Shown: positions 18,155 through 44,966, counted from the stretch's first letter. The stretch is 63,966 bases of DNA from an uncultured bacterium (GCA_903903945.1 CAIVAP010000112.1:1-63966), one strand, 5' to 3'. Notes: generated by a model from the sequence alone, not told the origin. A program made the numbers and translations.

Positions 18155-19135
18155 ATGACAAAAATACGATTGTTGCTGGTCGTTTTAGCATTGCTGCTGC
18201 CTGCCGCGACGCCATCGCTTTCCGCGGTCGCGATCATTGCCGACCATACCACGGTCGCCAAGTTCAATCAGATTCCGATCAGTTACTTCAATCAAATCCG
18301 CGCCGATTACCACTTCTTCTATGGACACACATCGCATGGCAGCCAAATCATGACCGGGCTGGGCATGTTGGCAGCGGAAAACGCCACCCAATACGCGCTG
18401 CCAAGTGTCTACGAGCCCCAAGACGGTATGGACCTTCGTTATAATGGTGATACTAGCTGGGTACCGGAAACGCGGGCTTATCTTGACGCTCATCCGGAGT
18501 GCAACTTTGTCATGTGGTCCTGGTGCGGAGGTGTCTCTGACAACACTGAAGAAGGAATCAACACCTACCTCGACGCAATGAATCAACTCGAACTGGCATA
18601 TCCCAATGTTAAGTTCCTCCACATGACTGGTCACCTTGATGGCAGCGGCGTTGACGGCAATCTCTATCTCCGCAACAATCAGATTCGCGCCTGGTGTGCC
18701 GCCCATGGCAAGATACTCTTTGACTTTGCCGACATCGAGAGCTACAGCCCCGACAACACCTACTATCCCGACGGCAGTGATGCCTGCGAATGGTGTTATA
18801 CATGGTGTGCCGGTAATTCCTGTCCCGCCTGTGGTGACTGCGCACATTCGCACTGCTTTAATTGCTATCAGAAGGGCAAGGCTTGGTGGTGGATGCTTGC
18901 GCGTGTGGCGGGCTGGAATCCCGAGCCGGCGACATGTGGTGACGCCAACTCGGACGGAGGGGTTAATATTAGTGATGCCGTCTATCTGATCGCGTATATT
19001 TTCTCCGGTGGTCCGGCGCCCAGCCCGCTCGGCTACGGCAACGTTAACTGCGACAGCGGGATTAATATCTCCGATGCCGTCTATTTGATTGGCTATATTT
19101 TCAGTGGTGGTTCGGCCCCCTGTGCGGGTTGCTGA
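18155..19135 (+). CDS. Secreted Cys-rich protein with a C-terminal twin dockerin-like module
   Basis: ATG 18155 lies 4 nt after GGAGGA; the track starts at TTG 18143. Signal peptide MTKIRLLLVVLALLLPAATPSLSA. The catalytic domain is unidentified. The C-terminal 66 aa read CGDANSDGGVNISDAVYLIAYIFSGGPAPSPLGYGNVNCDSGINISDAVYLIGYIFSGGSAPCAGC. Confidence 0.8.
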   Translation: MTKIRLLLVVLALLLPAATPSLSAVAIIADHTTVAKFNQIPISYFNQIRADYHFFYGHTSHGSQIMTGLGMLAAENATQYALPSVYEPQDGMDLRYNGDTSWVPETRAYLDAHPECNFVMWSWCGGVSDNTEEGINTYLDAMNQLELAYPNVKFLHMTGHLDGSGVDGNLYLRNNQIRAWCAAHGKILFDFADIESYSPDNTYYPDGSDACEWCYTWCAGNSCPACGDCAHSHCFNCYQKGKAWWWMLARVAGWNPEPATCGDANSDGGVNISDAVYLIAYIFSGGPAPSPLGYGNVNCDSGINISDAVYLIGYIFSGGSAPCAGC

Positions 19136-19141
19136 TGATTT

Positions 19142-19579
19142 CTACTTATTTGCCGCCTGTTTCTGGCAATAGGCATACAGAGCATCATAGACGATCATCT
19201 GTTTTGCCAGTATTTCGTGATCATCCTTAAGACCGAGATATCGGAAGCCTTCGGCAATCGCAGCCAATCCCGGCGCTTCCTGACGGCCATAGAGGTCATC
19301 AGAACAGTCGGCCCCATGGACTATCCGCGCTAATAGCTCGATTGCGGGGTCGTCGATTCTGTACTTCGCAGCGATCGCTTCAAAACTGCACTTGCCTCCG
19401 TGATGTCCCAATTCAGCACCTTCGACATCAAAGGGAATGGCTTTCTCACGCGCGGCCACTTCCTGCACCTGACCGTGCGGCACGAAAAAAAACTCCGCTT
19501 GCGCATCCACGAACCGCTTGATGAGCCAAGGACATGCTACCCGATCCACTTTGACGTGTTCGCGTGTTACCCATTTCAT
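19142..19579 (-). CDS. ChrB C-terminal domain-like protein (chromate-resistance family)
   Basis: 145 aa starting MKWVTREHVKVDRVACPWLIKRFVD. I recognise this as the ChrB-domain signature from memory only. Confidence 0.6.
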   Translation of the reverse strand: MKWVTREHVKVDRVACPWLIKRFVDAQAEFFFVPHGQVQEVAAREKAIPFDVEGAELGHHGGKCSFEAIAAKYRIDDPAIELLARIVHGADCSDDLYGRQEAPGLAAIAEGFRYLGLKDDHEILAKQMIVYDALYAYCQKQAANK

Positions 19580-19603
19580 CCAAAGACTCCTTTCAGTTGT
19601 TGC

Positions 19604-20812: not shown

Positions 20813-20938
20813 CAGAAATCAAGCACTTGGTTGCCGTTAAGCTGTCCGCTTCTGTTCCACGCAGGCGGCAGTCGATATCGGCGCCAACGTAAAGGATTGG
20901 TCATTCCTCTGCAAGCGGATATTGGTGCGTAAGAACGG

Positions 20939-20971
20939 AAAAAAACCAGGGCACGCAGTGGCGTGCCCTGG
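20939..20971 (-). terminator. Rho-independent terminator of rpmG
   Basis: Perfect 11-bp stem ccagggcacgc/gcgtgccctgg (20946-20956 and 20961-20971) with a 4-nt loop. On the minus strand it is followed by seven T residues (A run at 20939-20945). It lies 49 nt after the rpmG stop. Confidence 0.8.
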
Positions 20972-21019
20972 CGATAATTCTGTACGAGCGGGTCGCGAGA
21001 CCAATGCTCGCCGAATCGG

Positions 21020-21205
21020 CTAACGAATCTCTTTGTGAATCGTATGCCGACGCAGATGGGGATTGTATTTTTTCAGTTCCATCCGGTCGGGAGTATTGCG
21101 CTTATTCTTGGTGGTGGTGTACCTTGACGCGGTCTTGCCCTCTTTGACCGCTTCGGTGCACTCTATCGTAATCGTGCCGCGCGCATCGGTTTTCTTCTTT
21201 GCCAC
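21020..21205 (-). CDS. rpmG: 50S ribosomal protein L33
   Basis: 61 aa containing [34 protein letters not shown] start with a GAGGAG motif upstream. This is the Cys-poor (C-minus) form. Confidence 0.9.
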
Positions 21206-21367
21206 TGTCTATCTCCTCAAATCAACAAATCTGCAAACTGATCCCAGAAGCCAAGCGCTCCGAACAAGACATTCAATATACGTTCTTTTCTGCCGCAAGC
21301 AAGCTCTTTTCTTCCGTGACCTAACATCACCGCAGACAACGAGTTGATCGCCAATCCATTTGCCAGT

Positions 21368-23431
21368 CTAACACTCCGCACAGGGCGCTGCACCGCCGCT
21401 AAAGATGTAGGCGATCAGATACACGGCGTCCGAGATATTAACCGTACCACTGCAATTGGCGTCACCAGAGAGTAATGGCGATGGCGCCGGACCGCCGGAG
21501 AAAATGAACGCGATAAGGTAAACGGCATCAGAGATGTTTACCGTGCCACTTCCGTTAGCGTCGCCACAAACATAGGGCGGGGCTGGCGGGTCTGTGACGG
21601 TTAGAGCCAGCGCGGCTGTGTCGACCTTGGCCGGAATACTACCGTCACGCAGGGCGACCGTGAAATAGAAAGTTGCTTTCCAGGTCGGCGTGCCGGAAAT
21701 CGTGCCGCCGTCGAAATTCAGCCCGTAAGGCAACTCGCCTGATACCTTCGACCACGTATAGGGACCCACGCCACCAGCACTCTGAAGTGTCAGGTTGTAG
21801 TTTTGGAGGTAGTAGGCGTTGGGGAGGATCGGACCCGGATGAATATGCACACTGTCGTCGCACCAGTCACCGACTCCGTCGCTATTGGAATCCCATTGAT
21901 CATTATTGTTTACCAACGGGCAGTTGTCGCAGGCGTCACCAAGACTATCGGTGTCGCTGTTGGTTTGTGATAGGTTGGCAACATACTTGCAGTTGTCGTC
22001 GGCGTTCAAAATGCCGTCATTGTCGGCGTCGGGATCGCAGGCGTCGCCCAAGCTATCTCCATCGGCGTTGTGTTGGTCGTGATTAGGGACTGTCAGGCAG
22101 TTGTCGCAGGCATCACCGACGCTATCCTTATCGGAATCAAGTTGATCCGGATTGACAACCCGGGGACAGTTGTCAATAAGATTGGCGACTCCGTCATCGT
22201 CCCAATCGAGATTCGGATAATCCCATCCGATTGCATCGAACATAGCTATGTCAGGAGTACGGTAAAAATCCGGGTAAAAGGTCTCGCCATCTCCCATTTC
22301 TGGTTGCATAATGCCGTTCACGGAACCCTGACGGAAATGCGAGGATTGATTGGGAGTCCCATCCGACATACGATATTCGACATCAGCTCCTGCGCTGGTG
22401 AAAAGATTCGAGTTATGATCATCATCGGGATTATTGTAATCAACAAGCCGTGGCCGAAGTTGGAATTCTGAAACATTGTCAGGGTTATAATCCCCCGACC
22501 CATCCGTGCGTTGAAACCTGTAAATGTCGAGGGAAGTGATATCGGAATTTGGCTGATACCAGCTTTCTGCACGTGAAACAAACCCGAGGGCATGACCAAT
22601 TTCATGGAGTACAACCGACTGGAAGCACATCATGCTACCGGGAACACCGTCAGCCGGATCATAATCCCATGGGAAGTTTGTGCTAAACGTGATACTAGCG
22701 CAGGTACCACTAATGCTACCGATAGCGGCACCGTAGTTTGCCACGGAGAAGTAACAGCGATCCTCGTTGGTGACCGTAGAGCTTGAACCATCATACCGCA
22801 CGGGAATCGTACTCCCCGAAGGAAGATAGGTTTGAATGTAATCGTCAGAATCCATACCTGCAATAAGACTTGCGCGAGTAGTAGCCCACGAAGGTGGCGT
22901 GGCTGTATAATAGACTGACGTCGCACCAAGAATCCCGGGGCCAAGAGAGTCAAATTTAATGCTTATGTTAGCAGTTAGTGCATCGGTAAAGAGATCCTCC
23001 AGATATGTTGCCGCTGTTTCCAATGCGGTTATGGCTTCAGCCGGGACTGAGGCGTCATAGTTGAAAACCAAGTTAAAGTTGGAAAGCGCCTTTTGACTGG
23101 CGACTTTCTTATTCTTGTCATTTGCAAAACGTTCATTCGAAATTCGCACCTGTTCCTTGAAAAATTCAGCATTAGCTACAGAGGTGTCGCTTCCGGAAAA
23201 CGGTACCGTGATTATCTCGGTCTTCATCTCACTGAGACTATGATCATTGTAATTCTTGGTCGTAAACGTCGGACCGGCTTCAATAAGAACAAAGGAGTTA
23301 TCGGTAGCTGCCAACGGCGTCCGGTTCATCTTCTGAAAGGCAGAGGATGAATCGGGATTCGTCGCTGCCATCAGGGTAGAAAACATCAGCAACGAAATGA
23401 CTATCACGAACAAAGCTTTTCTGCAAAGCAT
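21368..23431 (-). CDS. Secreted HExxH zinc metalloprotease with thrombospondin type-3 repeats and a C-terminal twin dockerin-like module
   Basis: 687 aa with a signal peptide and the motif VLHEIGHALGF. Five or so Ca-binding TSP3-like repeats are present (DNCPRVVNPDQLDSDKDSVGDACDNC...). The C-terminal 66 aa form a dockerin-like module (21371-21568). AGGAGG lies upstream of the ATG. Confidence 0.8.
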   Translation of the reverse strand: MLCRKALFVIVISLLMFSTLMAATNPDSSSAFQKMNRTPLAATDNSFVLIEAGPTFTTKNYNDHSLSEMKTEIITVPFSGSDTSVANAEFFKEQVRISNERFANDKNKKVASQKALSNFNLVFNYDASVPAEAITALETAATYLEDLFTDALTANISIKFDSLGPGILGATSVYYTATPPSWATTRASLIAGMDSDDYIQTYLPSGSTIPVRYDGSSSTVTNEDRCYFSVANYGAAIGSISGTCASITFSTNFPWDYDPADGVPGSMMCFQSVVLHEIGHALGFVSRAESWYQPNSDITSLDIYRFQRTDGSGDYNPDNVSEFQLRPRLVDYNNPDDDHNSNLFTSAGADVEYRMSDGTPNQSSHFRQGSVNGIMQPEMGDGETFYPDFYRTPDIAMFDAIGWDYPNLDWDDDGVANLIDNCPRVVNPDQLDSDKDSVGDACDNCLTVPNHDQHNADGDSLGDACDPDADNDGILNADDNCKYVANLSQTNSDTDSLGDACDNCPLVNNNDQWDSNSDGVGDWCDDSVHIHPGPILPNAYYLQNYNLTLQSAGGVGPYTWSKVSGELPYGLNFDGGTISGTPTWKATFYFTVALRDGSIPAKVDTAALALTVTDPPAPPYVCGDANGSGTVNISDAVYLIAFIFSGGPAPSPLLSGDANCSGTVNISDAVYLIAYIFSGGAAPCAEC

Positions 23432-23484
23432 GCCAGCCTCCTAAAGATGCACGGGTAAGACGATGGGTTGTATAATCATAGACT

Positions 23485-28667: not shown

Positions 28668-30506
28668 TCACTTGCACAACGCGCATGGCGTAGCGCCGTG
28701 CGTGAATATGTAGCTAATCATGTAAACAGCGTCTGCTACCGTTGGCATTCCATCGCAATCGACATCGCCGCTACGACCGTCAAGGAGAGGACTGCCATGG
28801 ACAAAGATGAATTGAATCAGATGCACTATATCTGCGACGTCTACGCTACCGGAACCATTGTAGTCGCCGCACAATGATGGATCATCGTCATAATCAAAAC
28901 GCGCAACAAATCCTTCCGACGAACCGCCTGCATATTTAGGTAACCACGGATTGTGCAACGGAAAATCGGAGGAGCCGGTTTTGCCTGCCACGATGATCAT
29001 GCCGTTGACCACTGCTACGGCTCGTGCCTCGTCATCCCCCACACCACCATAGAGAGTGCTGAACTCGCTGCTGTCGCCGTCGGAAGAGATGATGCTGACA
29101 AAGGCTTCGCGTAATCCTGCCGTCTCGCTCTGCAAAGGTTTCGTCGTGGGGAAATCGCTTGCCAAAGTCCAGCCGACGACGATGATCTTGCCATTTTTGT
29201 CAGCGACAACCGCGCTTGCTTCGTCATCGCCCGAAACACCGCCGAGATATGTGCTAAATTGCACGGTTCCGGACATCCTGTCGAGCACCGTCACGAAACC
29301 ATCCGACAAACTTGGGCACGACCGACACGAATCTTGCAACGGCAGGTGCAACGGATAATCTGCCGAGTAGGTCTTGCCGACAATAATCACCTTGCCGTCG
29401 GAAGCAAGCGCCATTCCCCGAGGGATATCATCCTGTACGCCGCCCCAGTACGTCGATCTGATCAGCGGCACACCGGATGCGTCGATTTTCGCGACGAACA
29501 GATCTAAACCCCCCATGAGCGTATCCTGCAAGGGTTGGACAACCGGCAAGTCGGGAGAATTTGTCGTGCCGGAAATATAGATCGCGCCCTCGGCATCGAT
29601 GACAATGCCGACGGCATTATCGGCGCCACTGCCACCGAAGTAGGTCGAATAGCTTAGTGTTTTGGTCGTCGCGTTGATCTTGCAGATAAAGGCATCCGTT
29701 GCCGTTCCGGCCAGAGTATCAATCAGCGCATTAACCGTCGGGAAGTTGCTCGAACTGGTGCTGCCAACGATGCCGACGCTGCCGTAATTGTCAACCACGA
29801 GGTCACTGGCTCTGTCTTGACCATTGCCACCGAGATAGGATGAAAACAACAACGAGTCGCCGGCGCTGCTTACGCAGACAATGAGCGCGTCCTCATAGCC
29901 GGAGTTCTGCACCTTAAGCGGCATAACCACCCGCAAATCCGTTGATGTTGTTCCGCCGCAGACCCAGACACGTCCGGCGCTGTCAATGGCAATGCCGGTC
30001 GCTTGATCATTGCCGTTGCCGCCAAAATAGGTGCAAAATTCCAGCGTGTCGCCGGTAGGACAAAACTTGGCGATGAAAATGTCATCTTCCGCCGCGCGGG
30101 TATCCTGAAGTGCGTGCACTATCGGGAAGTTGTCGGAGTTAGTGTGGCCGGTAACATAAATATGTCCCCCCCGATCGATGGCAACATCGGTGATGTTGTC
30201 AGCCGCATTGCCGCCGAGGAAAGTGGAGAATCGCACGGTCGGCGCGGCGAGAGCGGTGGAAGTGAGAGCGACAAGAAACGCGATCGCGCACAAGATCAGC
30301 AGCGTGCGCAGGTTCGTAGGGCGAAACCCTCGCGGTTTCGACTTCCTTGTTTTCCCCCTTAGCAAAGGGGGACCAAGGGGGTTGTAGACGCGTTTCCCGT
30401 CAGCAGAATGACAACCACCCCTTCGGTCCCCCTTTGTTAGGGGGGAATGGCTATTCCCCTCTCCCCGTGGGGGAGGGGTTAGGGGTGAGGGTGCAAGCAA
30501 ACTCAT
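28668..30506 (-). CDS. Secreted SBBP-type beta-propeller repeat protein with a C-terminal twin dockerin-like module
   Basis: Contains about 8 repeats of the form STYLGGxGxDxAxxIxxDxxGxIyvxGxTxSxDFP. The C-terminal module is at 28671-28871. The start is uncertain: ATG 30506 or GTG 30530 both read through the hairpin-repeat cluster. The hydrophobic signal-like segment (LRTLLILCAIAFLVALTSTALA) only begins near 30300. Confidence 0.7.
   Translation of the reverse strand: MSLLAPSPLTPPPRGEGNSHSPLTKGDRRGGCHSADGKRVYNPLGPPLLRGKTRKSKPRGFRPTNLRTLLILCAIAFLVALTSTALAAPTVRFSTFLGGNAADNITDVAIDRGGHIYVTGHTNSDNFPIVHALQDTRAAEDDIFIAKFCPTGDTLEFCTYFGGNGNDQATGIAIDSAGRVWVCGGTTSTDLRVVMPLKVQNSGYEDALIVCVSSAGDSLLFSSYLGGNGQDRASDLVVDNYGSVGIVGSTSSSNFPTVNALIDTLAGTATDAFICKINATTKTLSYSTYFGGSGADNAVGIVIDAEGAIYISGTTNSPDLPVVQPLQDTLMGGLDLFVAKIDASGVPLIRSTYWGGVQDDIPRGMALASDGKVIIVGKTYSADYPLHLPLQDSCRSCPSLSDGFVTVLDRMSGTVQFSTYLGGVSGDDEASAVVADKNGKIIVVGWTLASDFPTTKPLQSETAGLREAFVSIISSDGDSSEFSTLYGGVGDDEARAVAVVNGMIIVAGKTGSSDFPLHNPWLPKYAGGSSEGFVARFDYDDDPSLCGDYNGSGSVDVADIVHLIQFIFVHGSPLLDGRSGDVDCDGMPTVADAVYMISYIFTHGATPCALCK
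30322..30478. repeat. Cluster of four short G/C-run hairpins (REP-like)
   Basis: H1 cgaaacc/ggtttcg at 30322-30340. H2 tccccctt-agca-aaggggga at 30353-30372. H3 tccccct-ttgtt-aggggg(g) at 30427-30445. H4 cccctctccc/gggggagggg at 30456-30478, which includes one G-U pair. Confidence 0.7.
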
Positions 30507-30514
30507 CAGTCCGG

Positions 30515-32119
30515 CTAAAACGCGCCGCACGGCGCGGGACCGCCAGAGAAGATGTACGCAATCAGATAGACGACATCAGCAATAGTAATTACTCCGTCGC
30601 AGTCTGCATCACCTGCTGCCAATGGCGATGGCGCCGGTCCGTGGGAAAAGATATATGCGATGAGATACACAGCGTCGGCGATGTTCACTTCGCCCGACCT
30701 GTCGGCATCACCAGGAATAATGACAAACACCTGCCGATACAATTGTCGGGCGGTCAGAATGTTCGTCGTCAAGTCCGAAAAGTCGAGACTGTCGTAAAAT
30801 GCCTGTGGGTTGTTCGAGTCGAAAAGTTGGAAATCGCTTGGATTGCGATGGAAGTTGTCGCCCATTGCTACCACAAAGGCCAACTCCGTACTGTCGCCCG
30901 GCGCGAGATCGATCGGCCCGAAGGAGAGCAGGAAGCGGGTATCGTAACCGTCTGCCAGATTGCTGGCAACATTCGCTGCCGGCGGCAGCCATCCTTGGGC
31001 GGAATGATCTACTGCTGACCAAAGCTGGTCGTAGTCATTTTCGGAAGTTGACATGATGTAGTACTTGTTTCGGTCACCTTCGGGTGTTCCAAGTCCGCCT
31101 GTGCCGAAATTGCGGTTGTTTTCCTGTCGTCGGGGTCCCCAGTCCAGCGTTGCGACACCGTTCGTAACCCACCAGTTGAACGACTGCTTTGGTTGTGTCG
31201 GGAAGTCGAGCAGGGAGACTCCAAGTACGGCGAGCGTTGATTGAGAAGTCCATTGTCCCGTTCCGGACGGATCACCGTCGTTGTCGGCCGACCAACCAAT
31301 TATCACCTGATCGTCGCTTAAAGAATCTTCAGTGAAATAGCTACCAGAAACATCGTCTTGAAAACCATATGGGGTTTCCGAATGGTAGGCGTCAGTGTCG
31401 AAGTGGAATCCGATGAACACCTTGTTGAGCGTATGAAGACTGATATTCTTGATATGATATCTGAAAATGATGAAATCCTCGTAAGCTGCCTGGTTCCAGG
31501 AATAGGACTCTTGCACGATCTTGAGTCCGATGGGAATGTGTGGTCGATTGTCCATAGGATCACGTCCTGTCCAGACTTCATCGACCAAGGTGTCATAGTA
31601 CTCGGCAATCATGTCGAGATCGCTAAGCGCTGCTGCGTCATAGTTGGGGTCGTAGGGACGGTTTGAGCGTCGTACAATACCGCCGTTTGGACTCGCTTGT
31701 GGATACATCTCAAAAACCCCCGACCAGCCGTCCGCGCCAACGGACACCAACGTGTCGCTATCCACAATCGCCCCGATCCAGAGAGCGCCCTGATAGAGAT
31801 AGTTGATGCCGCTACCGGCGGGGAATTCCGCGGATGGAGCTAGTGAACCGTATGCAATCCCTGGACCTAGACAATACATTTCCTTGAGCTGACCGCCGTT
31901 GAGCTGACTTCCGAAAAATCCCCAGTTGGTTACCGTCATCCACAGATTGCCCGTCCGATGCGAGCAGTTCTGAGTGTTGGGAGTGGCCGTCCATTTCCCC
32001 GAGGCAACTGGTTTTTCGCTATCAAGATATGCGCTCTTGCCAGCGGCCGTTGATCCAAACAGCGTTACAACTGCAATTCCCAATACGATCAACTTAGAGC
32101 CGATCCAGATCGTTTTCAT
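30515..32119 (-). CDS. Secreted protein of unknown function with a C-terminal twin dockerin-like module
   Basis: 534 aa with a signal peptide. GGGAGG lies 5 nt upstream of the ATG. The C-terminal module is at 30518-30712 (GDADRSGEVNIADAVYLIAYIFSHGPAPSPLAAGDADCDGVITIADVVYLIAYIFSGGPAPCGAF). Confidence 0.78.
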   Translation of the reverse strand: MKTIWIGSKLIVLGIAVVTLFGSTAAGKSAYLDSEKPVASGKWTATPNTQNCSHRTGNLWMTVTNWGFFGSQLNGGQLKEMYCLGPGIAYGSLAPSAEFPAGSGINYLYQGALWIGAIVDSDTLVSVGADGWSGVFEMYPQASPNGGIVRRSNRPYDPNYDAAALSDLDMIAEYYDTLVDEVWTGRDPMDNRPHIPIGLKIVQESYSWNQAAYEDFIIFRYHIKNISLHTLNKVFIGFHFDTDAYHSETPYGFQDDVSGSYFTEDSLSDDQVIIGWSADNDGDPSGTGQWTSQSTLAVLGVSLLDFPTQPKQSFNWWVTNGVATLDWGPRRQENNRNFGTGGLGTPEGDRNKYYIMSTSENDYDQLWSAVDHSAQGWLPPAANVASNLADGYDTRFLLSFGPIDLAPGDSTELAFVVAMGDNFHRNPSDFQLFDSNNPQAFYDSLDFSDLTTNILTARQLYRQVFVIIPGDADRSGEVNIADAVYLIAYIFSHGPAPSPLAAGDADCDGVITIADVVYLIAYIFSGGPAPCGAF

Positions 32120-35500: not shown

Positions 35501-35615
35501 GCGAAGGCGCTGGATGATGTAGATTTAGCGGCCCTGACAGCACTGTGTTAGATGCTGTCAGGAGCATTAGGATGAGAAACACTTTTGCGTTCAATACCTT
35601 ACCGATCAAGGACAT
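32544..35615 (-). CDS. Tricorn-protease-like protein (TolB-type beta-propellers, PDZ and S41 peptidase) with a signal peptide
   Basis: Repeated motifs SPDGSKVCFSYQGDLWIV and WSPDGNFIAFSSQR, and an S41-type DIRGNVGGN region near the C-terminus. The track starts at TTG 35678. I prefer ATG 35615 (MSLIGKVLNAKVFLILMLLTASNTVLSG), which follows GGAG. Confidence 0.82.
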   Translation of the reverse strand: MSLIGKVLNAKVFLILMLLTASNTVLSGPLNLHHPAPSPDGSKVCFSYQGDLWIVSAQGGKAQRLTVHVGYDAYPKWSPDGNFIAFSSQRYGNYDIFVISATGGIETRVTYYSADDLVSGWSADSRRILFASQRDHPYQQVWEVPAIGGRARPITTIESFDGRKSPDGARLLFTRGAVPYWRKGYRGPAACDLFLKDLASGTIVRVTQAPSSERDGFWSPSGSEILFLSDSTGVYNLFKRNLVSDQVTQLTNHRLSITYLSVAQDASLAAYELGGEIFLYDFKTGQGRKLELEAPAAAKTNAVEHVTFDSGVSDFAISPDGKLLAYVIHGDIFCRDLSGNYQQQLTSSAANERDLIWSPDSKQLAFVSDRDLVCDIYLARSIDLSQSSLARSRDREIAPFVKSDLTKRVPVISPDQSKLAFIRDETELVIKDIKKLTERVLTEKGAITSLNWSPDGRYIVFTRLDADWYSQIYIGDSESGAIYKISDAAGSYNDPRFSADGRLVYYVNDNDLHYLYMERRLAEMTFLERQEYAEKNVTPNALGLPTVMIDFDGIADRDVQLTHQGNIESTVMSPNSSTLVYITSAGQIERVNLDGSDQKVVTGTLPSPSDLQFSPRGEIVYVRDSKGRIQSINLQDGTATPLLISGEMDIDRKQEMTHVFDQVWATLKEHFYDPTMHGVDWNNIRETYLPRVQAATEPNDIYDIITEMTGELDCSHIMIWRDKPRVGETGMLGILPDYEDNSAGLKVKYFLSGSPATRLSSELRLEDKITAVEGKKLNANVDYYEAFENAVGTEIKLDIFSRDGISRSVLITPVDAEEYYDCEYRDNLARTRSLVDNLSHKKLAYIQLKQMDNDGMNGFENELAQQLDGKQGLILDIRGNVGGNNHEELLECLSRKPYVTHKTRDGDIGQDARGAITTPIVLLTDENTTSDAEIFALGFRELGLGTIMGTTTYGAVVGAKYYSLANGWKLGVPTVGWYSLKGEALENNGVAPDIVVSRDLSRLERGEDNQLEEAVKYLTDKIK

Positions 35616-35776
35616 GCTCCAACCGTAACCAAGCATTTGCAAACCTACTAATCTGACGCGCCAGCCGCCAAAACGCAAAATCTTTTTTTGCGTAGTTCAG
35701 TAACGTTTCCTTTCGCGGGCGACCCGAACGACCCTGATGCCCATGGCAAAGCCTTCGATCGGGCTGCTCTTTTAGG

Positions 35777-35805
35777 TTGACAATGGCTCCAAGTCAGACT
35801 AACTA
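35777..35805 (+). promoter_or_regulatory. Weak sigma70-like promoter (TTGACA-N17-TAACTA) ending 7 nt before ATG 35812
   Basis: The -35 and the spacing are exact, but the -10 is poor. No SD motif lies between it and the ATG. Confidence 0.25.
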
Positions 35806-35811
35806 ACTGCC

Positions 35812-37371
35812 ATGTTTCATCTTGCAGCATTACCGCTTCTGCTTTCTCTCACCTCTGTCTCGGTCGACAGTTCGCGTGGTGTTGCCGCCAGCTCCCAAGT
35901 TCCCCAAACCACTGGCAACGCTATGCTACAGCGGATCGAATCTACCGACTACGTAGCCAATAAGTACTGGGAAGAATATCTGCTTCTGGACAATATGAGC
36001 AAACTGTATGCGAATGTCCGCCCCAGTACCACCCGTTTCCGCAACGAGGAACACGGCGACCGACTGAATCAACCCGTGGCGTCAATCATCAGCGACCGCT
36101 TCCCTTTGTATGATCAGGAGAGTCGGCTGAATCTGAATCATCTTCTAGGCCGTGCCGACCCGTCGGGAGAATTCCCGGCACTGCGTCTGCGTTTTGTGCC
36201 GTACGCGGAGGAATTGGCTGCCGATGACACGCTGCCGGTACACCGCATCGGTATCACTGCCGAATCTTGGATCAACCCGGTTCCCGACTTGCAGGTACAC
36301 ATCCGCGCTCGGGTCGAAAATCACGGTGAACTCTACTCACAGTTTGACGGTCGCAAGTGGAAAAAGAAAATCACCGGCTGGCTGGACAATGCCGCTCTCT
36401 ACTTCTATCACAACGGCATTTTCGGCTCTGTCGGAAGGTCGTATCTCATTTGGGGACCAGAGCCACATGATGCACTGTTGATTTCCGACAATTCACCCGC
36501 GTTCGACCGCATCTGGCTTGGCTATGAACACAAAGCCTTTCGCTTTGACTATGTCATCGCTCGACTCGATGATTTCCATCAAGGCGATTCAATGCTGGTG
36601 CGCTATTTCTCGGCACATCGTTTGTCATTCCGCAAAACCGGAGTTTTCGAATTGGGACTGTCGGAAGTGGCATTATATGGAGGTTACAATCGGCCGATGG
36701 AGTGGCGCTATCTGAATCCTTTCCTTCCCTACTATTGGGAGCAATACAATCGCAATAGCGACGACAACATGTTCATCGGCATGGACGGCGTGATTTATTG
36801 GCCAAAGCGGTCGCGCATCTTCGGTGAGTTGATGATTGATGACTTCCAGATCGACTTCAAGTCGGAGCCCCATCAGGTCGGTTACAAACTCGGCATCGAC
36901 GCTCTGGAGCCATTGGGCTTCGCACGTCTGTTCACGAAGTTGAGCTACACGCGCGTGAATACTACGGTCTATGGGCAGAACAAACCGCAAAATCTCTACC
37001 TCAACTCCGGCCAGCCGATCGGTTATTTTGGGGGCAATGATCAGGATCGTATCTTGGCATTGCTGCGCTATCATGTCTCGACAAGCTGTGATCTGGAACT
37101 CGAATTCCAATACAACCGCCGCGGAGAAGGCCGAATTGAACCGCACCAGTCCAGCGCCGTGCCGAAAGGGGTCAAGTTTCCATCGGGCATTGTGGAAAAA
37201 TCACCATCACTGCAATTAGCCGTCGAACTGTTTCATTCCCAGTTCCTGCAGGGACATGCGGCATTCAACTATGCTCATTTCGCCAACTATCAGCACGTCC
37301 GGGGCCGCAACCATGACAGAATCGGCCTTGACCTGAGGTTATCCTATTATCTGCAGGGATCATTTGACTGA
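35812..37371 (+). CDS. Putative outer-membrane beta-barrel protein; tentatively capsule-assembly Wzi-like
   Basis: 519 aa with a hydrophobic N-terminus and an aromatic-rich alternating pattern. An RYLNPF motif recalls the Wzi family, from memory only. The stop overlaps the ispE ATG (TGATG). Confidence 0.55.
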   Translation: MFHLAALPLLLSLTSVSVDSSRGVAASSQVPQTTGNAMLQRIESTDYVANKYWEEYLLLDNMSKLYANVRPSTTRFRNEEHGDRLNQPVASIISDRFPLYDQESRLNLNHLLGRADPSGEFPALRLRFVPYAEELAADDTLPVHRIGITAESWINPVPDLQVHIRARVENHGELYSQFDGRKWKKKITGWLDNAALYFYHNGIFGSVGRSYLIWGPEPHDALLISDNSPAFDRIWLGYEHKAFRFDYVIARLDDFHQGDSMLVRYFSAHRLSFRKTGVFELGLSEVALYGGYNRPMEWRYLNPFLPYYWEQYNRNSDDNMFIGMDGVIYWPKRSRIFGELMIDDFQIDFKSEPHQVGYKLGIDALEPLGFARLFTKLSYTRVNTTVYGQNKPQNLYLNSGQPIGYFGGNDQDRILALLRYHVSTSCDLELEFQYNRRGEGRIEPHQSSAVPKGVKFPSGIVEKSPSLQLAVELFHSQFLQGHAAFNYAHFANYQHVRGRNHDRIGLDLRLSYYLQGSFD

Positions 37372-38234
37372 TGGTTGATCGCTCGGTAACGATTGATACA
37401 CCGGCCAAGATTAATCTGTTTCTCAAGATCATCGGGAAGCGGCCTGATGGTTACCATGATATCTATTCATTGGTGCAGACGGTCGATCTGTACGATACCC
37501 TTACGATTTCTGAAATCGACAGAGGAACGGAACTGATCGGCGCTACGGCCGTTGTACCTCTCGATTCATCCAATATAATCTGGAAGGCGGCTGAGTTACT
37601 GCGCCGGCAAACGGGCTTCACGCAAGGCATACAGGTCAATCTGACCAAACGTATTCCGGTCGGCGCCGGTTTGGGTGGAGGGAGTTCCGATGCCGCCGCG
37701 ACACTCAAAGGCGTGAATCGGCTTCTGGATCTCAATTTGTCGCGGCAGCAACTGCAGCAACTTGGCGCCACTCTCGGCAGTGATGTCCCCTTCTTCTTCT
37801 CGACCGGTTCGGCGATCATCACCAGACGCGGAGAAATGGTTGAGGAGGTCAAGATAGCATCTGACTACTTTGTCCTTCTGGTTGTTCCCGATTTCGCGAT
37901 TTCCACAGCCGAGGCCTACTCGAAGGTGAAAATTGCCTTGACAAACTCTTCCCCCAAGCCTACATTTAAGCGGGAGAAAATAAGCGCCGAACTTTTACCA
38001 TTGCTCGATCAAATCGGCAATGATTTTGAAGGCCTGGTGACCGACGGCCATCCGGCAGTTTTTGCGTGTATGCAAATTCTTCGGGAGGCAGACGCACATG
38101 CTGTGGCGCTATCGGGGAGCGGTTCAGCGTTTTTTGGACTGTTCGATCGAGTACCCGATCCTTCCTTGGCGACGATGATATCAGGGCGTTTTGGCTGGCA
38201 GGTTTTTAGTCTCTGCCCTGTCAAGCTGGCGTGA
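37371..38234 (+). CDS. ispE: 4-diphosphocytidyl-2-C-methyl-D-erythritol kinase
   Basis: 287 aa with PAKINLFLKIIGKRPDGYH and the GHMP kinase motif PVGAGLGGGSSDAAA. Confidence 0.92.
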   Translation: MVDRSVTIDTPAKINLFLKIIGKRPDGYHDIYSLVQTVDLYDTLTISEIDRGTELIGATAVVPLDSSNIIWKAAELLRRQTGFTQGIQVNLTKRIPVGAGLGGGSSDAAATLKGVNRLLDLNLSRQQLQQLGATLGSDVPFFFSTGSAIITRRGEMVEEVKIASDYFVLLVVPDFAISTAEAYSKVKIALTNSSPKPTFKREKISAELLPLLDQIGNDFEGLVTDGHPAVFACMQILREADAHAVALSGSGSAFFGLFDRVPDPSLATMISGRFGWQVFSLCPVKLA

Positions 38235-39011: not shown

Positions 39012-39836
39012 ATGAAAATCAGCTATCGAATTGGATTCTTGGTCTTGGCCCTGGTCGCCATTATGTCTGCGATCGCCTCGGCCTACCAACCCGCTGATGT
39101 CTCGATTCGTTTCAATGGTGGCGGCAGCCACAACAAAGTCTATGTCGGTCGAGACAACATCATGGAAATCTTGGTCAGAAACGACGTAGCGATCATAGGC
39201 ATGAGTATTGGGTTTCAGTGCACCAGTTTATCCGGCTCGTTTTCCTGGGTGACTCCCTACGGGACCAAGCCGGTCGGCACTCCGTATGTCAAGGAGCATG
39301 GTGACGTGATTGGGGCGTTTGACTTGACCGATGGTATTGTTACCGTCCTTCGTTTGCCCGACACGATCCTCGTTGGTGGCGCAGCAGATACCAATGCGCT
39401 ACCGGCGCACGCCAGTTCCACTGTTTTCGCCTCACTGAAGCTGCGCATTCCGGCGGGGCAGCCAGCTGTATCCTCCGGATTCTGTGTCGACAACATCTTT
39501 GTCCCCCCGGCCGGAACATGGCAAATAGTGGACATCAACTTCGCCGGGTTCCCTCCCACTTTCAACGGACAAGAGAACACGAGTGTCAGCATACCCGATG
39601 CACCGCCGATCTGTTTCGATATCGTCGCCCAGTCTTTCATTCGTGGGGATCTGGACGACAACATGACCATCGACTTGGCCGACCTCACGCGCCTGATTGA
39701 CTATATGTTCTTCAATGGACCGGCTCCGAAGTATCCCGAGTCGGCGGACGTCAACGGCGATGGGCGATTGAACGTCGCTGATGTGGTTTTCCTGATCAGG
39801 TACCTCTTCTCGGGCGGCCCTGAACCGTCGTGGTAG
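39012..39836 (+). CDS. Secreted protein with a possible cohesin-like beta-sandwich and a C-terminal twin dockerin-like module
   Basis: ATG 39012 follows AGGAGG; the track ORF starts earlier at 38919. Signal peptide MKISYRIGFLVLALVAIMSAIASA. The Cys-free dockerin module is at 39645-39833. Confidence 0.75.
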   Translation: MKISYRIGFLVLALVAIMSAIASAYQPADVSIRFNGGGSHNKVYVGRDNIMEILVRNDVAIIGMSIGFQCTSLSGSFSWVTPYGTKPVGTPYVKEHGDVIGAFDLTDGIVTVLRLPDTILVGGAADTNALPAHASSTVFASLKLRIPAGQPAVSSGFCVDNIFVPPAGTWQIVDINFAGFPPTFNGQENTSVSIPDAPPICFDIVAQSFIRGDLDDNMTIDLADLTRLIDYMFFNGPAPKYPESADVNGDGRLNVADVVFLIRYLFSGGPEPSW

Positions 39837-39959: not shown

Positions 39960-41576
39960 ATGATAGTTCGTCTGGTTCAGATTCTGTTGCTGGCCGCTTT
40001 TGGGAGTGTTGCTACCGGAGCGACTGCTGACAGCACCCCGCAAGATACCACACACTCGATGGTTGTGAGAATGACACAACCTCACGTTATCTACCCAGGC
40101 TACAATAGCATTTCGATCACGAAGGCAGGGGGAGATCTAGCCTTCGGCGGTTTCGGCTTTGAAATCAACTATGACCCCGCTGTCCTTATATTTGCTTCTG
40201 CCGAACTCGGCAGCGCACTAAACAATGGTGGCTGCGCGTGGAAATACTTCGCCTACCGACTTGATTCAACGACCAACAGCCCGGGAAATTGCCCACTCGC
40301 TCTGCTGCGAATCGTCGCGGCAACTGATTCCCTGATTGGACCACCTTCATCGGCAGCTTGTCACGTACCGGACGGCGGTGAACTTGTTAGAATCAAGTTT
40401 CTCGTGACCGGTGACCGCACCTACTCTGGATTTTATTCTGCTGTGCGTTTTTGCTGGCGCGGTTGCCAGGACAATGCACTCGTCTCAAGTCAACATGACA
40501 CTCTATTTGTTTCCCGCCGTGTGCTGGACATGACCGATGTCGATCTTATTCGTGGACAGAACAAGGACAATGAGATCACCGGAGCGGACTGCCAATTCCG
40601 CGTTCACTTTGGTGGCGATTGTGCTAGCTGCGATAGTCTGAAGGCCGGCAAGAAGGTGTCGCGACTGGTGGACTTCCAGAATGGCGGTATCTACATCTGC
40701 TGCGGAGATGTCGAACCCACAGGGGATATTAATCTCAACGGTATCCCAAACGAAATTGCGGATGCCAGATTGCTCGCAGATGCCCTGGTGCAGGGGACAG
40801 ATGTCCTGGTCCGGGGTCGAGATATTCTGCCCAATGTCACCAGAGAAGCGGCTGAATTTGCCTCCGACGTCAACGGTGATGACTATCCGCTCACTGTCGC
40901 CGATCTTGTCTATCTGCAGCGCATCATCATCGGAGATGCAATCCCATATCCCAAACTTAGACCCTTCGGTGACTCAGTCAAAGTGACGTTCTCTAATGGG
41001 CTTCTTTCCACCCAATCGCCTTCGGAGATCGCCGGCGTTCTCGCGATCTTCAACTGCGAAGGCAATTGCAGCGTCGAATCCCAATCCATTCTGCCTGTCA
41101 CCAGCCTCTTTGACACAACTAAGAAAGAACTGCGAGTTCTTGCTGCCTGTGGCTCAGACGATTCGAGTACTACATATTACACAGACTGCAACGAGAGGCG
41201 CCTGCCAGCAGGCGAGAACAAGCTGTTCACGATTCATGGTCGGGCCAACCTCTTGACGACGCAGGTATCCGACTACAACGGCAATTTGCTGCTAACGAGT
41301 GTAGGCAACGAACTTTCGCGGCGAGTGTTCGACGTCGCCGATCGAGTGCTCAGTTGGCCGGAACGTGATAATGCCAAAATCGGTTTCTATCTACTGACTG
41401 AGTCCGACTGGCGCATCGACGTCTATTACCAAGATCATATTTTTCAGTCATACTCCGGAAGAGACGTCGGCCACAAGGTTTTCCGGTGCGATGCAACCAA
41501 TTGGTGTCCGGGCACATACACGTATAGCCTAACAGTCGGGGCCTTTCATGCGTCCCGTCCGCTAATCAAATGGTAG
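39960..41576 (+). CDS. Secreted protein with an N-terminal cohesin-like domain, an internal dockerin-like module and a C-terminal domain of unknown function
   Basis: 538 aa with a signal peptide. The segment AFGGFGFEINYDPAVLIFASAELGSAL...GGELVRIKFLV resembles the cohesin core. The dockerin-like twin repeat lies at 40722-40937 (GDINLNGIPNEIADARLL...DVNGDDYPLTVADLVYLQRIIIGD). Confidence 0.75.
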   Translation: MIVRLVQILLLAAFGSVATGATADSTPQDTTHSMVVRMTQPHVIYPGYNSISITKAGGDLAFGGFGFEINYDPAVLIFASAELGSALNNGGCAWKYFAYRLDSTTNSPGNCPLALLRIVAATDSLIGPPSSAACHVPDGGELVRIKFLVTGDRTYSGFYSAVRFCWRGCQDNALVSSQHDTLFVSRRVLDMTDVDLIRGQNKDNEITGADCQFRVHFGGDCASCDSLKAGKKVSRLVDFQNGGIYICCGDVEPTGDINLNGIPNEIADARLLADALVQGTDVLVRGRDILPNVTREAAEFASDVNGDDYPLTVADLVYLQRIIIGDAIPYPKLRPFGDSVKVTFSNGLLSTQSPSEIAGVLAIFNCEGNCSVESQSILPVTSLFDTTKKELRVLAACGSDDSSTTYYTDCNERRLPAGENKLFTIHGRANLLTTQVSDYNGNLLLTSVGNELSRRVFDVADRVLSWPERDNAKIGFYLLTESDWRIDVYYQDHIFQSYSGRDVGHKVFRCDATNWCPGTYTYSLTVGAFHASRPLIKW

Positions 41577-41962: not shown

Positions 41963-42222
41963 TTATACCATCCGTGACAACTGTCGTCGGGATCGGCAAA
42001 CGGTTCAGAGTATTTTTTGCGATCCGGATTGGAGAGTCGCGAATACTGTCAGCGATTGAGTCCGTAGGAAAGCAACCGCTCACGATGCAAGTGTATGAAT
42101 ATCGATGTCATTGCTGCAAGCATGATAACATCCGCTATCTAACAGGTCAAGGAGAAGGCCGAACTGATACCGACTTGGATTTTCCAAGTGCCCTCAGGCG
42201 GTGAAAACGTCCAATCTATCTA

Positions 42223-42251
42223 TTGACATCAGTTCTATTTCGTCCTAATAT
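42223..42251 (+). promoter_or_regulatory. Sigma70-like promoter (TTGACA-N17-TAATAT) for the HAD hydrolase gene
   Basis: Exact -35 and 17-nt spacer, about 65 nt upstream of ATG 42317. Confidence 0.45.
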
Positions 42252-42316
42252 GATCTGGAAAAGTGCGACCTTAGAAAGCGTGATGGGAACCGATTCTTCA
42301 GGCAAGGAAAGGACAA

Positions 42317-43069
42317 ATGGTCAAAGCAGTTCTCTGTGATATGGATGGCGTCATTGTGTGGGACAACAATCTGGTGGAGGGCGCCAAGACCTTCGTTGAT
42401 AATCTTCTGAAAAACGGCCATCCGTTCCTGTTTTTGACCAACTATCCGTCGCTGACACCCGCCGATCTTCAGCATCGCCTCTCGCTTGCCGGTCTCGTCG
42501 TGGCGCCGGAACATTTCTATACTTCGGCAATGGCCACAGCCGCATTTCTCGAAAGTCAGGCGGCCGGTGACAAGGTCTTCGTCATTGGCGAAGGCGCACT
42601 CACGCATGCTCTCTATGAACATGGTTTCACCGTCACCGAGCAGAATCCGGATTATGTCGTCCTTGGCGAAACCCGATCGTACAACTTCGAAATGATTGAG
42701 AAAGCCATCCGCCTAATTCGCCATGGCGCCCGCTTCATAGCCACCAATCCCGATGTCTCCGGTCCGTCCGGGTTTCCATCCTGCGGTGCACTGGCGGCGC
42801 CAATCGAGCGCGTGACCGGTATCCACCCCTTCTATATTGGCAAGCCGAATCCGTACATGATGCGCGCGGCATTGCGCCAGATCGGTGCTCATTCCGAGAA
42901 TACGGTGATGATTGGCGACAACATGGAAACCGACATTATCGCCGGCATTCAATCGGGCATGGAGACAATCCTGGTCTTGTCCGGCGTGACTACCGAGCAG
43001 GAAATCGCCCACTTCCCCTATCGCCCCACGCGCGTCGTAAAGAACGTCGGGGAGATAACCTCGCTGTAA
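42317..43069 (+). CDS. HAD-IIA family hydrolase (NagD-like sugar/nucleotide phosphatase)
   Basis: 250 aa with the nucleophile motif VLCDMDGVI, plus LTNYPS and a distal IGDNMETDI motif. Confidence 0.85.
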   Translation: MVKAVLCDMDGVIVWDNNLVEGAKTFVDNLLKNGHPFLFLTNYPSLTPADLQHRLSLAGLVVAPEHFYTSAMATAAFLESQAAGDKVFVIGEGALTHALYEHGFTVTEQNPDYVVLGETRSYNFEMIEKAIRLIRHGARFIATNPDVSGPSGFPSCGALAAPIERVTGIHPFYIGKPNPYMMRAALRQIGAHSENTVMIGDNMETDIIAGIQSGMETILVLSGVTTEQEIAHFPYRPTRVVKNVGEITSL

Positions 43070-43225
43070 GTGTCGCAAAGGGCACAGATACGGTGCTACC
43101 GTGCCTCATTGGCGATCTGATTTCCACAGAAAAACTGCGCCACCGCACCCGAAACGTTTTTAACCATAGCTGCTCATACCAGACAACAGCGACCATCTTT
43201 CGAGCATACAAATCGAAAAACACCC

Positions 43226-43253
43226 TTGACAAATGCTCGAAATTGTCTAAGTT
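43226..43253 (+). promoter_or_regulatory. Sigma70-like promoter (TTGACA-N16-TAAGTT) embedded in TTGAC-type inverted repeats
   Basis: Exact -35. The flanking inverted repeat is cttgacaa (43225-43232) against ttgtcaag (43255-43262). It lies about 140 nt upstream of ATG 43392. Confidence 0.35.
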
Positions 43254-43391
43254 ATTGTCAAGCAAATGTCTTGGCGTGCGCCTGTTTGACTTCCGTCAAG
43301 TTATCGTCATTTCTTCCGCACTGACGGAGTAACAGCGAGAGCCGAGTTATAGGAAACTGTACTTCGCAAGCGAAATCCGGGAAGGTCTTCC

Positions 43392-44966
43392 ATGAAAAGT
43401 TTGTCATTCTTGATCGTGGGGCTAGGACTCATACTCACTGCTGCCTCAACCGCCACAACAATTTATGTTCCTGCTGATCAAGCCACGATTCAGGCAGGTA
43501 TCAATGCGGCGTTTTCGGGGGATACAGTTTTGGTGTCTCCGGGGACGTATATTGAGAACTTGACCATTGCGACGTCAATTCTGCTTCTTTCTGAACAGGG
43601 GGATTCGGTCACGATCGTTCGCCCGGCGGATTCGACTCAAAGCGTCTTATATGCTGTCAGTGCGACAGTGACTGTTCAGGGGTTCACTTTTCGCGACTGC
43701 TGGGCTCCCAAGGCCGTGTTTTTTGACCAATGCCATGTGGTCTTGACCGGCAACACTGTCTGCTTCAACACATCGGCCGATGCGCCCGTTTTCGTGTCGG
43801 GCCGGTATCCAGACGAGGTCGGGAACTGTGTAGCAACTAACTGCGTTGTCCACGACAATCAGGGGGGGATCTTCACGGCCGGTCTGTGCCTGATCGACCT
43901 CGTCGAGCCGGGACGAGTATCTCACTGCACTTTTTACAATAATTACGGAGCCAACGGCGGCGGCATCACTCTGTGGAATGTGCAGAATGCACTTATTGAA
44001 AGATGTCTGATTCGCAACAACGTCGTCGAGAGATACGGGGGCGGTATCGCAATGGTGAATGGATCGAATTACGATACACTCCGAAACAACACGATTGCAC
44101 ATAATTGGTCCACGAGTTCGTCTGGAGGGGGTGTGTTCGGCATGGGTTACGAGAGCGACTTCAGAAACAACATAATCAGTGATAACCGCGGCATCGGAGT
44201 GGTCGGATATCCAGATGGAGGTCCGACGTGGGCGTACTGGTATAACGATTTGTGGCAAAACACGCCTTCGAATGCCGAACCTCCGCTTGGAACAACTAAC
44301 GTTTCAATTGATCCCATGTTTGTTGACACACTCGCCGGAGACTATCGCTTGAAGGCTCAATCGTTCTGCATTGACGCAGGTGATCCAAACCCGATATACA
44401 ACGATCCCGACGGGTCAAGAAACGACATGGGTCGGTACTTCTATGAGAATGACCCGCCGCAGAATTTCAACCTGTTGGTCCCGGCAAACCAGATTGACTC
44501 GTCCGTACTGGAGTTGGCTCCAACTTTCTCTTGGGAAGAGTCACTCGACCCGGATATTAAGGATGTGATCACTTACTCCTTTGTCATATCTATCGACTCG
44601 CAATTTGTCTTTGCAGTCGAAAGAACCGGCATCGCGCAAACAGAATACACACTTGATTTCGATCTGGTCTGGAACACGCGTTACTGGTGGAAGGTGAAAG
44701 CGACCGATGAAGGTGGTATCACGGTCTGGTCTAATTCCGTGTTTACGTTCAGAACTTCCACACTGGGTGATATCAACGACGACGGCGCGATTGATGTGGT
44801 CGATGCCATTTCTTTGATCAACTACATCTTCATCGATGGACCGGCGCCGAGAGCGCTGCGGCTCGCAGACTCCAACTGCGACGGCAGGGTCAATATTGGT
44901 GATGTCGTCTATCTCATCAGATACATCTTCTCTGGAGGCCCCGCGCCTTGCGCCAATCCGGAATGA
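43392..44966 (+). CDS. Secreted right-handed parallel beta-helix protein with an Fn3-like region and a C-terminal twin dockerin-like module
   Basis: 524 aa with a signal peptide. Beta-helix turns are repeated (NNxxxxNGGGI/GGGIA/GGGVF pattern). The C-terminal module is at 44766-44963. Confidence 0.8.
   Translation: MKSLSFLIVGLGLILTAASTATTIYVPADQATIQAGINAAFSGDTVLVSPGTYIENLTIATSILLLSEQGDSVTIVRPADSTQSVLYAVSATVTVQGFTFRDCWAPKAVFFDQCHVVLTGNTVCFNTSADAPVFVSGRYPDEVGNCVATNCVVHDNQGGIFTAGLCLIDLVEPGRVSHCTFYNNYGANGGGITLWNVQNALIERCLIRNNVVERYGGGIAMVNGSNYDTLRNNTIAHNWSTSSSGGGVFGMGYESDFRNNIISDNRGIGVVGYPDGGPTWAYWYNDLWQNTPSNAEPPLGTTNVSIDPMFVDTLAGDYRLKAQSFCIDAGDPNPIYNDPDGSRNDMGRYFYENDPPQNFNLLVPANQIDSSVLELAPTFSWEESLDPDIKDVITYSFVISIDSQFVFAVERTGIAQTEYTLDFDLVWNTRYWWKVKATDEGGITVWSNSVFTFRTSTLGDINDDGAIDVVDAISLINYIFIDGPAPRALRLADSNCDGRVNIGDVVYLIRYIFSGGPAPCANPE

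Follow-up and report, generated by a model that had tools for sequence, protein, structure and literature searches.

Dockerin modules on secreted proteins of an uncultured Zixibacteria genome point to a probable non-cellulosomal cohesin–dockerin display system

Six secreted proteins encoded within 27 kb of DNA from an uncultured bacterium end in a module of ~65 residues that we assign to the type-I-like dockerins, and a seventh carries a divergent relative of this module internally. The DNA in question is the 63,966-nucleotide stretch CAIVAP010000112.1:1-63966 (the window, to whose full length plain coordinates refer), which is contig C112 of the 3.48-Mb metagenome-assembled genome (MAG) GCA_903903945.1. 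About 100 proteins of this MAG carry such a module, and the genome also encodes cohesins and the translocon of a type IX secretion system (T9SS). We consider it likely that these components make up a non-cellulosomal, T9SS-anchored cohesin–dockerin display system that is typical of the phylum Zixibacteria.

Type-I-like dockerins and their paired cysteines

A preliminary description of the window had listed seven twin-repeat stretches, and the translations of all seven agree with it. It had taken them for one and the same module; this holds for the six that end their open reading frames (ORFs) and share the consensus (C)GDANGSGxVNISDAVYLIAYIFSGGPAPxPLxxGDANCxGxVNISDAVYLIAYIFSGGPAPCxxC, whereas the internal module belongs to a different subtype. 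Each of the six consists of two tandem segments, a 12-residue Ca-binding loop followed by a helix, which is the architecture of type I dockerins. Measured against the curated gathering threshold of PF00404 (Dockerin_1; 22.9 bits), five of the six proteins reach 28-40 bits at full length. The sixth, a protein with an SBBP propeller, has 21.0 bits at full length but 24.3 bits in a six-frame search of the genome. A profile of 76 modules matched 28 PDB chains (best E 3.7e-8), essentially all of them solved dockerins, including those of C. thermocellum, A. cellulolyticus, R. flavefaciens and R. bromii, along with two chains named only 'Serine protease'. Both Ca loops align in register with the solved dockerins, and across 96 modules from the genome each of the two repeats has D at loop positions 1 and 12, N/D at positions 3 and 9 and S/D/N at position 5. 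The AF2 model of the 274-aa protein encoded at 39012-39836 places helices at residues 222-233, 242-245 and 255-267. The earlier likening of the module to type-I dockerins is borne out by these family matches, structural matches and conserved loop ligands. Ca2+-dependent folding and cohesin binding can be predicted on this basis, and by analogy with clostridial type-I dockerins, two repeats so nearly identical suggest that binding is dual-mode.

The competing idea of a better score against a sorting-signal family found no support: none of the seven window proteins matches an NCBIfam sorting-signal family (T9SS C-terminal domain (CTD), PEP-CTERM and the like). The T9SS CTD is a beta-sandwich of 80-100 aa (TIGR04183 / PF18962), whereas the module is helical, and the 48 TIGR04183 matches in the genome lie on ORFs other than the seven. 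We accordingly rejected T9SS, PEP-CTERM or another known sorting signal as the identity of the module. The proteins had been described as secreted, and Sec-type N-terminal signal peptides are indeed visible in all seven. The DNA of the modules differs mostly at synonymous positions, as had been noted: the proportion of synonymous differences (pS) is saturated at 0.62-0.93, the nonsynonymous proportion (pN) is 0.18-0.41, and the first two modules share 77% amino-acid identity against 68% nucleotide identity. Since saturated pS combined with low pN marks old paralogues under purifying selection, the modules are such paralogues, and the earlier view that selection acts on the peptide, as opposed to a recent duplication, stands.

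The modules extend far beyond the window. In the MAG (302 contigs, 84% complete, 2.2% contamination), a six-frame search returned 102 PF00404 matches and a hidden Markov model built from the six window modules found 103 ORFs. The modules lie on ~80 contigs in intact ORFs without internal stops, and in 94 of the 100 dockerin ORFs that end in a stop codon the module is at most 15 residues from the C-terminus. A signal-like N-terminus occurs in ~92% of dockerin ORFs versus ~41% of background long ORFs, a background rate that reflects how crude the heuristic is. The preliminary description had stressed the local density of these genes. A mild enrichment is present: at the genome-wide rate 26 kb should hold 0.75 modules, and 6 are there (Poisson 1.3e-4, with no correction for how many windows were possible). 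The window contig is the richest of the assembly, another contig having 5; the trait is nonetheless genome-wide and phylum-wide, and we rejected a local gene cluster or island.

To survey the cargo, we compared the 80 dockerin ORFs outside the window with Pfam. After Dockerin_1, the most frequent families were TSP_3 (7), He_PIG (7), SBBP (5), Peptidase_S8 (5) and Peptidase_M1 (4), followed by Laminin_G_3, Amidase_3 and Beta_helix (3 each), M14 and M23 (2 each), FG-GAP and C1. No glycoside hydrolase (GH) or carbohydrate-binding module (CBM) family is among the 25 most frequent of the 42 families, with rare GHs possible among the other 17. By these family assignments most of the cargo consists of peptidases, cell-wall amidases and beta-helix proteins, together with proteins of propeller, Ig and adhesin type. 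A cellulosome in the strict sense is defined by dockerin-borne GHs and a multi-cohesin scaffoldin with a cellulose-binding CBM; these are not what we find, and the system is not a cellulosome in that sense.

The host was placed by the names of its homologues. Among the best 120 matches to its PcrA, every organism-named one is 'candidate division Zixibacteria' or 'Candidatus Zixiibacteriota' (47-62% identity), and the named homologues of both lineage-specific window proteins are likewise Zixibacteria, with GN15 and FCB-group (Fibrobacteres–Chlorobi–Bacteroidetes) labels also present; the MAG was therefore assigned to Zixibacteria, which we take to be the host phylum. Cloacimonadota, at first suggested by a single class with small closed genomes, was considered and rejected, given a GC content of 52.7% and the uniform naming of these PcrA matches. 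Zixibacteria are common in anoxic sediments and aquifers, and we know of no cultured member. Of 101 genomes drawn from across the phylum, all of one class, 99 had dockerin matches, many of them reaching the scoring cap, and six closed single-contig genomes hold 72, at least 128, 55, 66, 26 and 11 of them. Across a library of 1.84 billion proteins, the 76-module profile matched 63,658 cluster representatives at E<=1e-3 and 21,442 at E<=1e-10. Judged by these matches, dockerin tagging is a phylum-wide trait.

Cysteines recur at four positions of the module: immediately ahead of the first GD (C0), within the second loop (D-x-N-C; C38), after the second helix (P-A-P-C; C62) and 2-3 residues later. 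Within this genome, C0 occurs together with the terminal cysteine (Fisher p=2.4e-9) and the loop cysteine with the PAPC cysteine (p=1.3e-9), and the cross pairs are independent (p about 1). Among 461 modules from the 150 best global matches, the commonest cysteine-bearing pattern is C0 plus the PAPC cysteine (p=4e-34), and the extra terminal cysteine is found mainly where the loop cysteine is present (p=5e-15). Such a parity pattern is what disulfides predict. In modules with two cysteines, C0 is predicted to pair with the PAPC cysteine; in those with four, the loop cysteine would probably pair with the PAPC cysteine and C0 with the added terminal one.

The putative pair between C0 and the C-terminal cysteine may represent, in covalent form, the dockerin 'intramolecular clasp', in which the residue before the conserved glycine of loop 1 contacts the C-terminal end and stabilises the Ca-bound fold (Slutzki et al. 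2013; PMC3821032). The Zixibacteria cysteine at position -1 and the C-terminal cysteine occupy the places of the clasp, but the known clasps are non-covalent, formed by aromatic-proline stacking or a salt bridge (PMC3821032), whereas a disulfide is suggested here by co-occurrence. The C0/PAPC pair is also present in every copy of three poly-dockerin proteins from the global protein library (P0152, P0154 and P0161), which consist almost wholly of 6-12 tandem modules (for example, 9 in 720 aa). Such proteins could act as multivalent cross-linkers of cohesin-bearing surfaces.

Cohesins and their proposed roles as anchors and adaptors

A genome-wide count of cohesins had been proposed alongside that of dockerins; Pfam Cohesin gave 2 matches over its cutoff and 7 weak ones, which is too low a count. 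Structure models added to this picture. The 538-aa product of 39960-41576 has a weak, sub-threshold Pfam cohesin match (E=0.097), and many of its homologues in other Zixibacteria carry PF00963 together with PF18962 (T9SS CTD) and PF13860 (FlgD_ig). Its AF2 model (pLDDT 81) retrieved almost exclusively cohesins among the best 50 PDB matches in Foldseek, with the CipA cohesin 1aoh at a target-normalised TM of 0.77. The neighbouring 39012-39836 protein (pLDDT 86) likewise matched almost only cohesins, at TM up to 0.76. By their models, both window genes thus encode the fold of solved cohesins, a nine-stranded beta-sandwich jelly-roll, which bears out the cohesin-like domains of the preliminary description, and their products are probable receptors or adaptors of the dockerin system.

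The cohesin domain of 39012-39836 is detected by no sequence model. The protein has no detectable sequence similarity to the 39960 cohesin family (hhalign with the single sequence, 0.7%), and a profile of its class compared with the profile of the 39960 class gives an hhalign probability of 0.8%. As these sequence tests are uninformative, its assignment as a cohesin rests on the structure model. The two proteins stand for separate classes. A profile of the 39960 class found 11 ORFs in the genome, and a profile of the third class, of the 39012 type, found ORFs on contigs C156, C62, C221, C255, C264 and C278, four of which (those on C156, C62, C221 and C278) are further additions to the cohesin count. 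On C264, a paralogue of the 39012 protein has its third-class match where Pfam Cohesin also matches, which cross-validates the third class. Pfam, lineage profiles and AlphaFold/Foldseek combined bring the genome's cohesin-bearing ORFs to ~22, of which the window holds two. By sequence the cohesins fall into at least three classes, two of which are invisible to Pfam.

The ends of these ORFs differ. A terminal T9SS CTD follows the cohesin in ORFs on C68, C102 (two ORFs), C253, C62, C221 and C278, and probably also on C255; a C-terminal dockerin follows it on C125, C203, C215 and C264 and in the window gene 39012-39836; the remainder, apart from the 39960 protein with its degenerate CTD (below), end in neither. 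The T9SS translocon SprA is present (639 bits). Cohesin–CTD proteins, a translocon and C-terminal dockerin cargo are therefore found in one genome, the combination by which a T9SS-anchored cohesin–dockerin system, as put forward for Ca. Stygibacter, is defined. We propose that the cohesin–CTD proteins serve as anchors and the cohesin–dockerin proteins as adaptors. In one 1233-aa ORF (C204:35025-35690, minus strand) a T9SS CTD comes straight after a dockerin, and the two C-terminal modules are therefore not interchangeable equivalents.

The 39960 protein also carries the internal module, which has a longer linker than the C-terminal modules and is without their F-x-G-G-P-x-P (YIFxGGPxP) tail. 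PF00404 does not match it even at E<=10. In an alignment of 58 homologues, however, the Ca-ligand-type residues D256, N258, N260, E265, D268, D303, N305 and D315 are invariant, as D307 almost is, and a profile-profile comparison with the C-terminal module gives an hhalign probability of 96.5% (E 7e-10). We therefore classify it as a conserved, divergent dockerin-like subtype. The last domain of the same protein (~41367-41573) aligns to the CTD profile of its family. This profile retains some contamination by homologues that end in dockerins, and for that reason we call the domain only a degenerate or uncertain T9SS CTD.

The proposed display system, its alternatives and its relatives

In the display system that we propose, dockerin proteins would be exported by the Sec pathway and would then fold with Ca2+ and be stapled by disulfides, which would lock the dockerin fold in the oxidising periplasm or outside the cell. 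The cohesin proteins that end in a T9SS CTD would serve as anchors, with the type IX system exporting them and attaching them to the cell surface. The ~100 C-terminal dockerins would dock in a Ca2+-dependent manner on the cohesins of the ~22 proteins, either directly on anchors or by way of cohesin–dockerin adaptors, which would yield a layered network. In this way peptidases, adhesin-type proteins and wall hydrolases, an exoproteome for hydrolysis and adhesion, would be displayed on or near the cell. The surface location, the role in polymer degradation or adhesion and the specificity of cohesin for dockerin are all predictions.

Several points weigh against this proposal. Its evidence is entirely computational, and the co-occurrence of cysteines among paralogues is partly confounded by shared ancestry. 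Dockerins outnumber cohesins heavily (~100 to ~22), and no large multi-cohesin scaffoldin was found, with at most two cohesins per ORF in this fragmented, 84% complete MAG. TIGR04183 does not detect the CTD of the 39960 protein. The main gap is the route by which dockerin proteins would cross the outer membrane to surface cohesins, because they are without a T9SS CTD and the MAG has no complete type II secretion system (T2SS) secretin; no GspD-type secretin reaches its cutoff. PilQ is the sole complete secretin (311 bits, over the PilQ cutoff and below that of GspD), and the second is a fragment that ends at a contig end.

It could be argued that the modules function without cohesins, as Ca2+-stabilised EF-hand pairs that bind another ligand (envelope glycans, an S-layer or substrate) or stabilise secreted proteins. 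The high ratio of dockerins to cohesins, the want of a large scaffoldin and the metagenomic poly-dockerin proteins with 6-12 tandem modules would fit such a role, and a 2009 survey by Peer et al. is said to have found non-cellulosomal dockerins widespread and mostly uncharacterised. We nevertheless judge it unlikely: ~22 cohesin-bearing ORFs co-occur with the modules, including cohesin–dockerin adaptors, whose architecture makes sense only with mutual binding, and in both repeats the helix face shows very strong conservation (VNISDAVYLIAYIF), as expected for a common protein partner. The module might otherwise be a secretion or sorting tag that is read by export or attachment machinery, its likeness to dockerins reflecting a reused Ca-binding fold. 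Its strictly C-terminal place in 94% of cases, on ~100 signal-peptide proteins and in parallel to the 48 proteins with a T9SS CTD, would suit a tag, as would the homologous proteins that end in either a CTD or a dockerin and the fact that no other outer-membrane route was identified. However, the module has its matches among dockerin models and solved dockerins, with none to a sorting family; canonical cellulosomal dockerins are C-terminal too; cohesin folds are abundant, two of them adjoining dockerin genes in the window; and in the C204 ORF the dockerin precedes a CTD and so does not replace it. A sorting tag thus strikes us as quite improbable.

A variant that retains cohesin binding would make dockerin tagging a second, indirect branch of type IX secretion, in which tagged proteins dock in the periplasm on cohesin–CTD carriers and the folded complexes are co-exported through SprA in a 'piggy-back' fashion. 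This would explain both the dockerin proteins that have no CTD and the failure to find a complete T2SS secretin, and if true, a few CTD-bearing cohesin proteins would deliver and anchor ~100 proteins that have none; we give it only a slim chance. An artefact of assembly or binning, recent duplications or pseudogenes could be suspected in a MAG of such fragmentation (302 contigs), completeness (84%) and contamination (2.2%), but the ORFs are intact on ~80 contigs, pS is saturated with low pN, the trait is also found in closed single-contig genomes and synteny around the window genes is conserved. The spread across the phylum, the closed genomes and the saturated pS effectively refute this explanation, whose probability we put at close to nil.

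The T9SS-anchored display system can be compared with three known cohesin–dockerin systems. With clostridial cellulosomal type-I dockerins (PF00404; C. thermocellum Xyn10B/Cel48S, PDB 1ohz, 2mte and 3ul4), the Zixibacteria modules share the length of ~65 aa, the two segments of Ca loop plus helix, the C-terminal place on Sec-secreted proteins, the near-symmetric repeats and cohesins in the same genome. Unlike them, they have a conserved F-x-G-G-P-x-P tail after the helix, Ile-Ser in place of Ser-Thr at recognition positions 10/11 and up to four conserved cysteines that co-occur in pairs; the host, moreover, is a diderm of the FCB group, and the cargo is mainly of peptidase and adhesin type, with no GH among its 25 most frequent families. 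An in-silico 'cellulosome-like' complex was described in the Cloacimonadota Ca. Stygibacter, with a cohesin protein that bears a T9SS-type CTD for cell attachment (Williams et al. 2021; PMC8542988). This too is an uncultured FCB lineage in which peptidases and other hydrolases bear C-terminal dockerins, but it concerns one genus, one 3,755-aa scaffoldin that combines tandem cohesins with CBMs, and only a few reported dockerin enzymes (PMC8542988), whereas the Zixibacteria system is phylum-wide, with ~100 dockerins per genome, many small proteins of one or two cohesins, adaptors, modules that are putatively cysteine-stapled and cargo whose 25 commonest families include no CBM. The 'planctosome' of freshwater Planctomycetes, a cohesin–dockerin model for breaking down polypeptides (Andrei et al. 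2019; PMC6461901), is likewise a non-cellulosomal in-silico model with layers of anchor, adaptor and dockerin-peptidase, and with TSP3 repeats and M14 peptidases; it differs in its anchoring by lamin-tail domains in place of a T9SS CTD, its few components, its phylum and the absence of reported cysteine staples (PMC6461901).

NCBI labels some Zixibacteria proteins 'dockerin type I repeat-containing', and a full-text literature search for Zixibacteria or Zixiibacteriota with dockerin or cellulosome returned no relevant paper. New, in our view, are the host phylum, the extent of the trait (~3% of genes, with 11 to at least 128 dockerins in a genome), the numerous small cohesin proteins spread over three classes, the architecture of adaptors and anchors and the putative disulfide clasp. 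If the proposal is correct, ~3% of Zixibacteria genes would belong to a cohesin–dockerin network, a scale equal to that of the best cellulosome producers, but one built for peptidases and adhesins and anchored via type IX secretion. The cohesin–dockerin principle would then reach beyond the Gram-positive specialists in cellulose degradation and take in an entire diderm phylum, and there would be a concrete model for how Zixibacteria attack particulate protein and necromass. It would also offer many small, probably disulfide-stabilised dockerin/cohesin pairs for protein-assembly engineering, and it raises sharply the question of how dockerin proteins that have no CTD cross the outer membrane.

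Genes of the window and their neighbourhood

The window holds six cargo or adaptor genes and two cohesin genes, with 39012-39836 in both counts (Table 1). The preliminary description had called their cargo domains completely different from one another; most are unrelated by family, but the 39012-39836 and 39960-41576 products share the cohesin fold.

Table 1. Dockerin-module genes of the window, with the secretin loci found elsewhere in the MAG
Feature	Position	Strand	Module (strand)	Evidence
Secreted protein, Cys-rich N-domain (no family match) and C-terminal 4-Cys dockerin	18155..19135	+	18935-19132 (+)	signal peptide; PF00404 28.1 bits, residues 266-319
NF038122-family (LGF) metalloprotease, TSP3 repeats, He_PIG Ig domain and C-terminal 4-Cys dockerin	21368..23431	-	21371-21568 (-)	metallo_LGF 171 bits, TSP_3, He_PIG, Dockerin_1 28.8 bits
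SBBP beta-propeller and C-terminal dockerin	28668..30530	-	28671-28871 (-)	SBBP 99.7 bits; Dockerin_1 21.0 / 24.3 bits
Secreted protein, N-domain without family match and C-terminal dockerin	30515..32119	-	30518-30712 (-)	Dockerin_1 29.8 bits, the only Pfam match
Probable single-cohesin adaptor: signal peptide, cohesin fold (~39093-39626), Cys-free C-terminal dockerin	39012..39836	+	39645-39833 (+)	AF2/Foldseek; Dockerin_1 40 bits
Cohesin protein, 538 aa: signal peptide, cohesin fold (~40059-40709), internal module of divergent subtype, two beta domains	39960..41576	+	40722-40937 (+)	AF2/Foldseek
Right-handed beta-helix (NosD/pectate-lyase-like) and C-terminal 2-Cys dockerin	43392..44966	+	44766-44963 (+)	Beta_helix 72.6 bits, Dockerin_1 39.4 bits
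Secretin loci	C228:2993-4132; C74:26643-26834			

The listed GTG start of the SBBP gene (28668-30530) gives a leader of ~75 aa rich in Pro, Gly and Arg before a signal-peptide-like segment (…LRTLLILCAIAFLVALTSTALAAP; window 30290-30530), and the in-frame stretch upstream extends over the end of the dockerin gene that precedes it; the true start probably lies downstream of this GTG. The cohesin gene at 39960 is flanked by genes of housekeeping type, namely a Tricorn-like S41 protease, Wzi and an IspE-like GHMP kinase (32544-38234) on one side and a HAD hydrolase (42317-43069) on the other. Its surroundings are syntenic in two relatives, L081 and L084 (37-45% identity), where a Tricorn protease, Wzi, an IspE-like kinase, SpoVG and the cohesin gene stand in that order in both. 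In L081 only, a HAD hydrolase also follows downstream and then a beta-helix gene with Dockerin_1, the syntenic orthologue of 43392-44966. The cohesin–dockerin gene 39012-39836 is absent from the loci of both relatives and therefore looks like a lineage-specific insertion. TSP3 repeats, which in the window occur on the metalloprotease, are also present in homologues of the 39012 cohesin protein that have no dockerin (P0139 and P0142).

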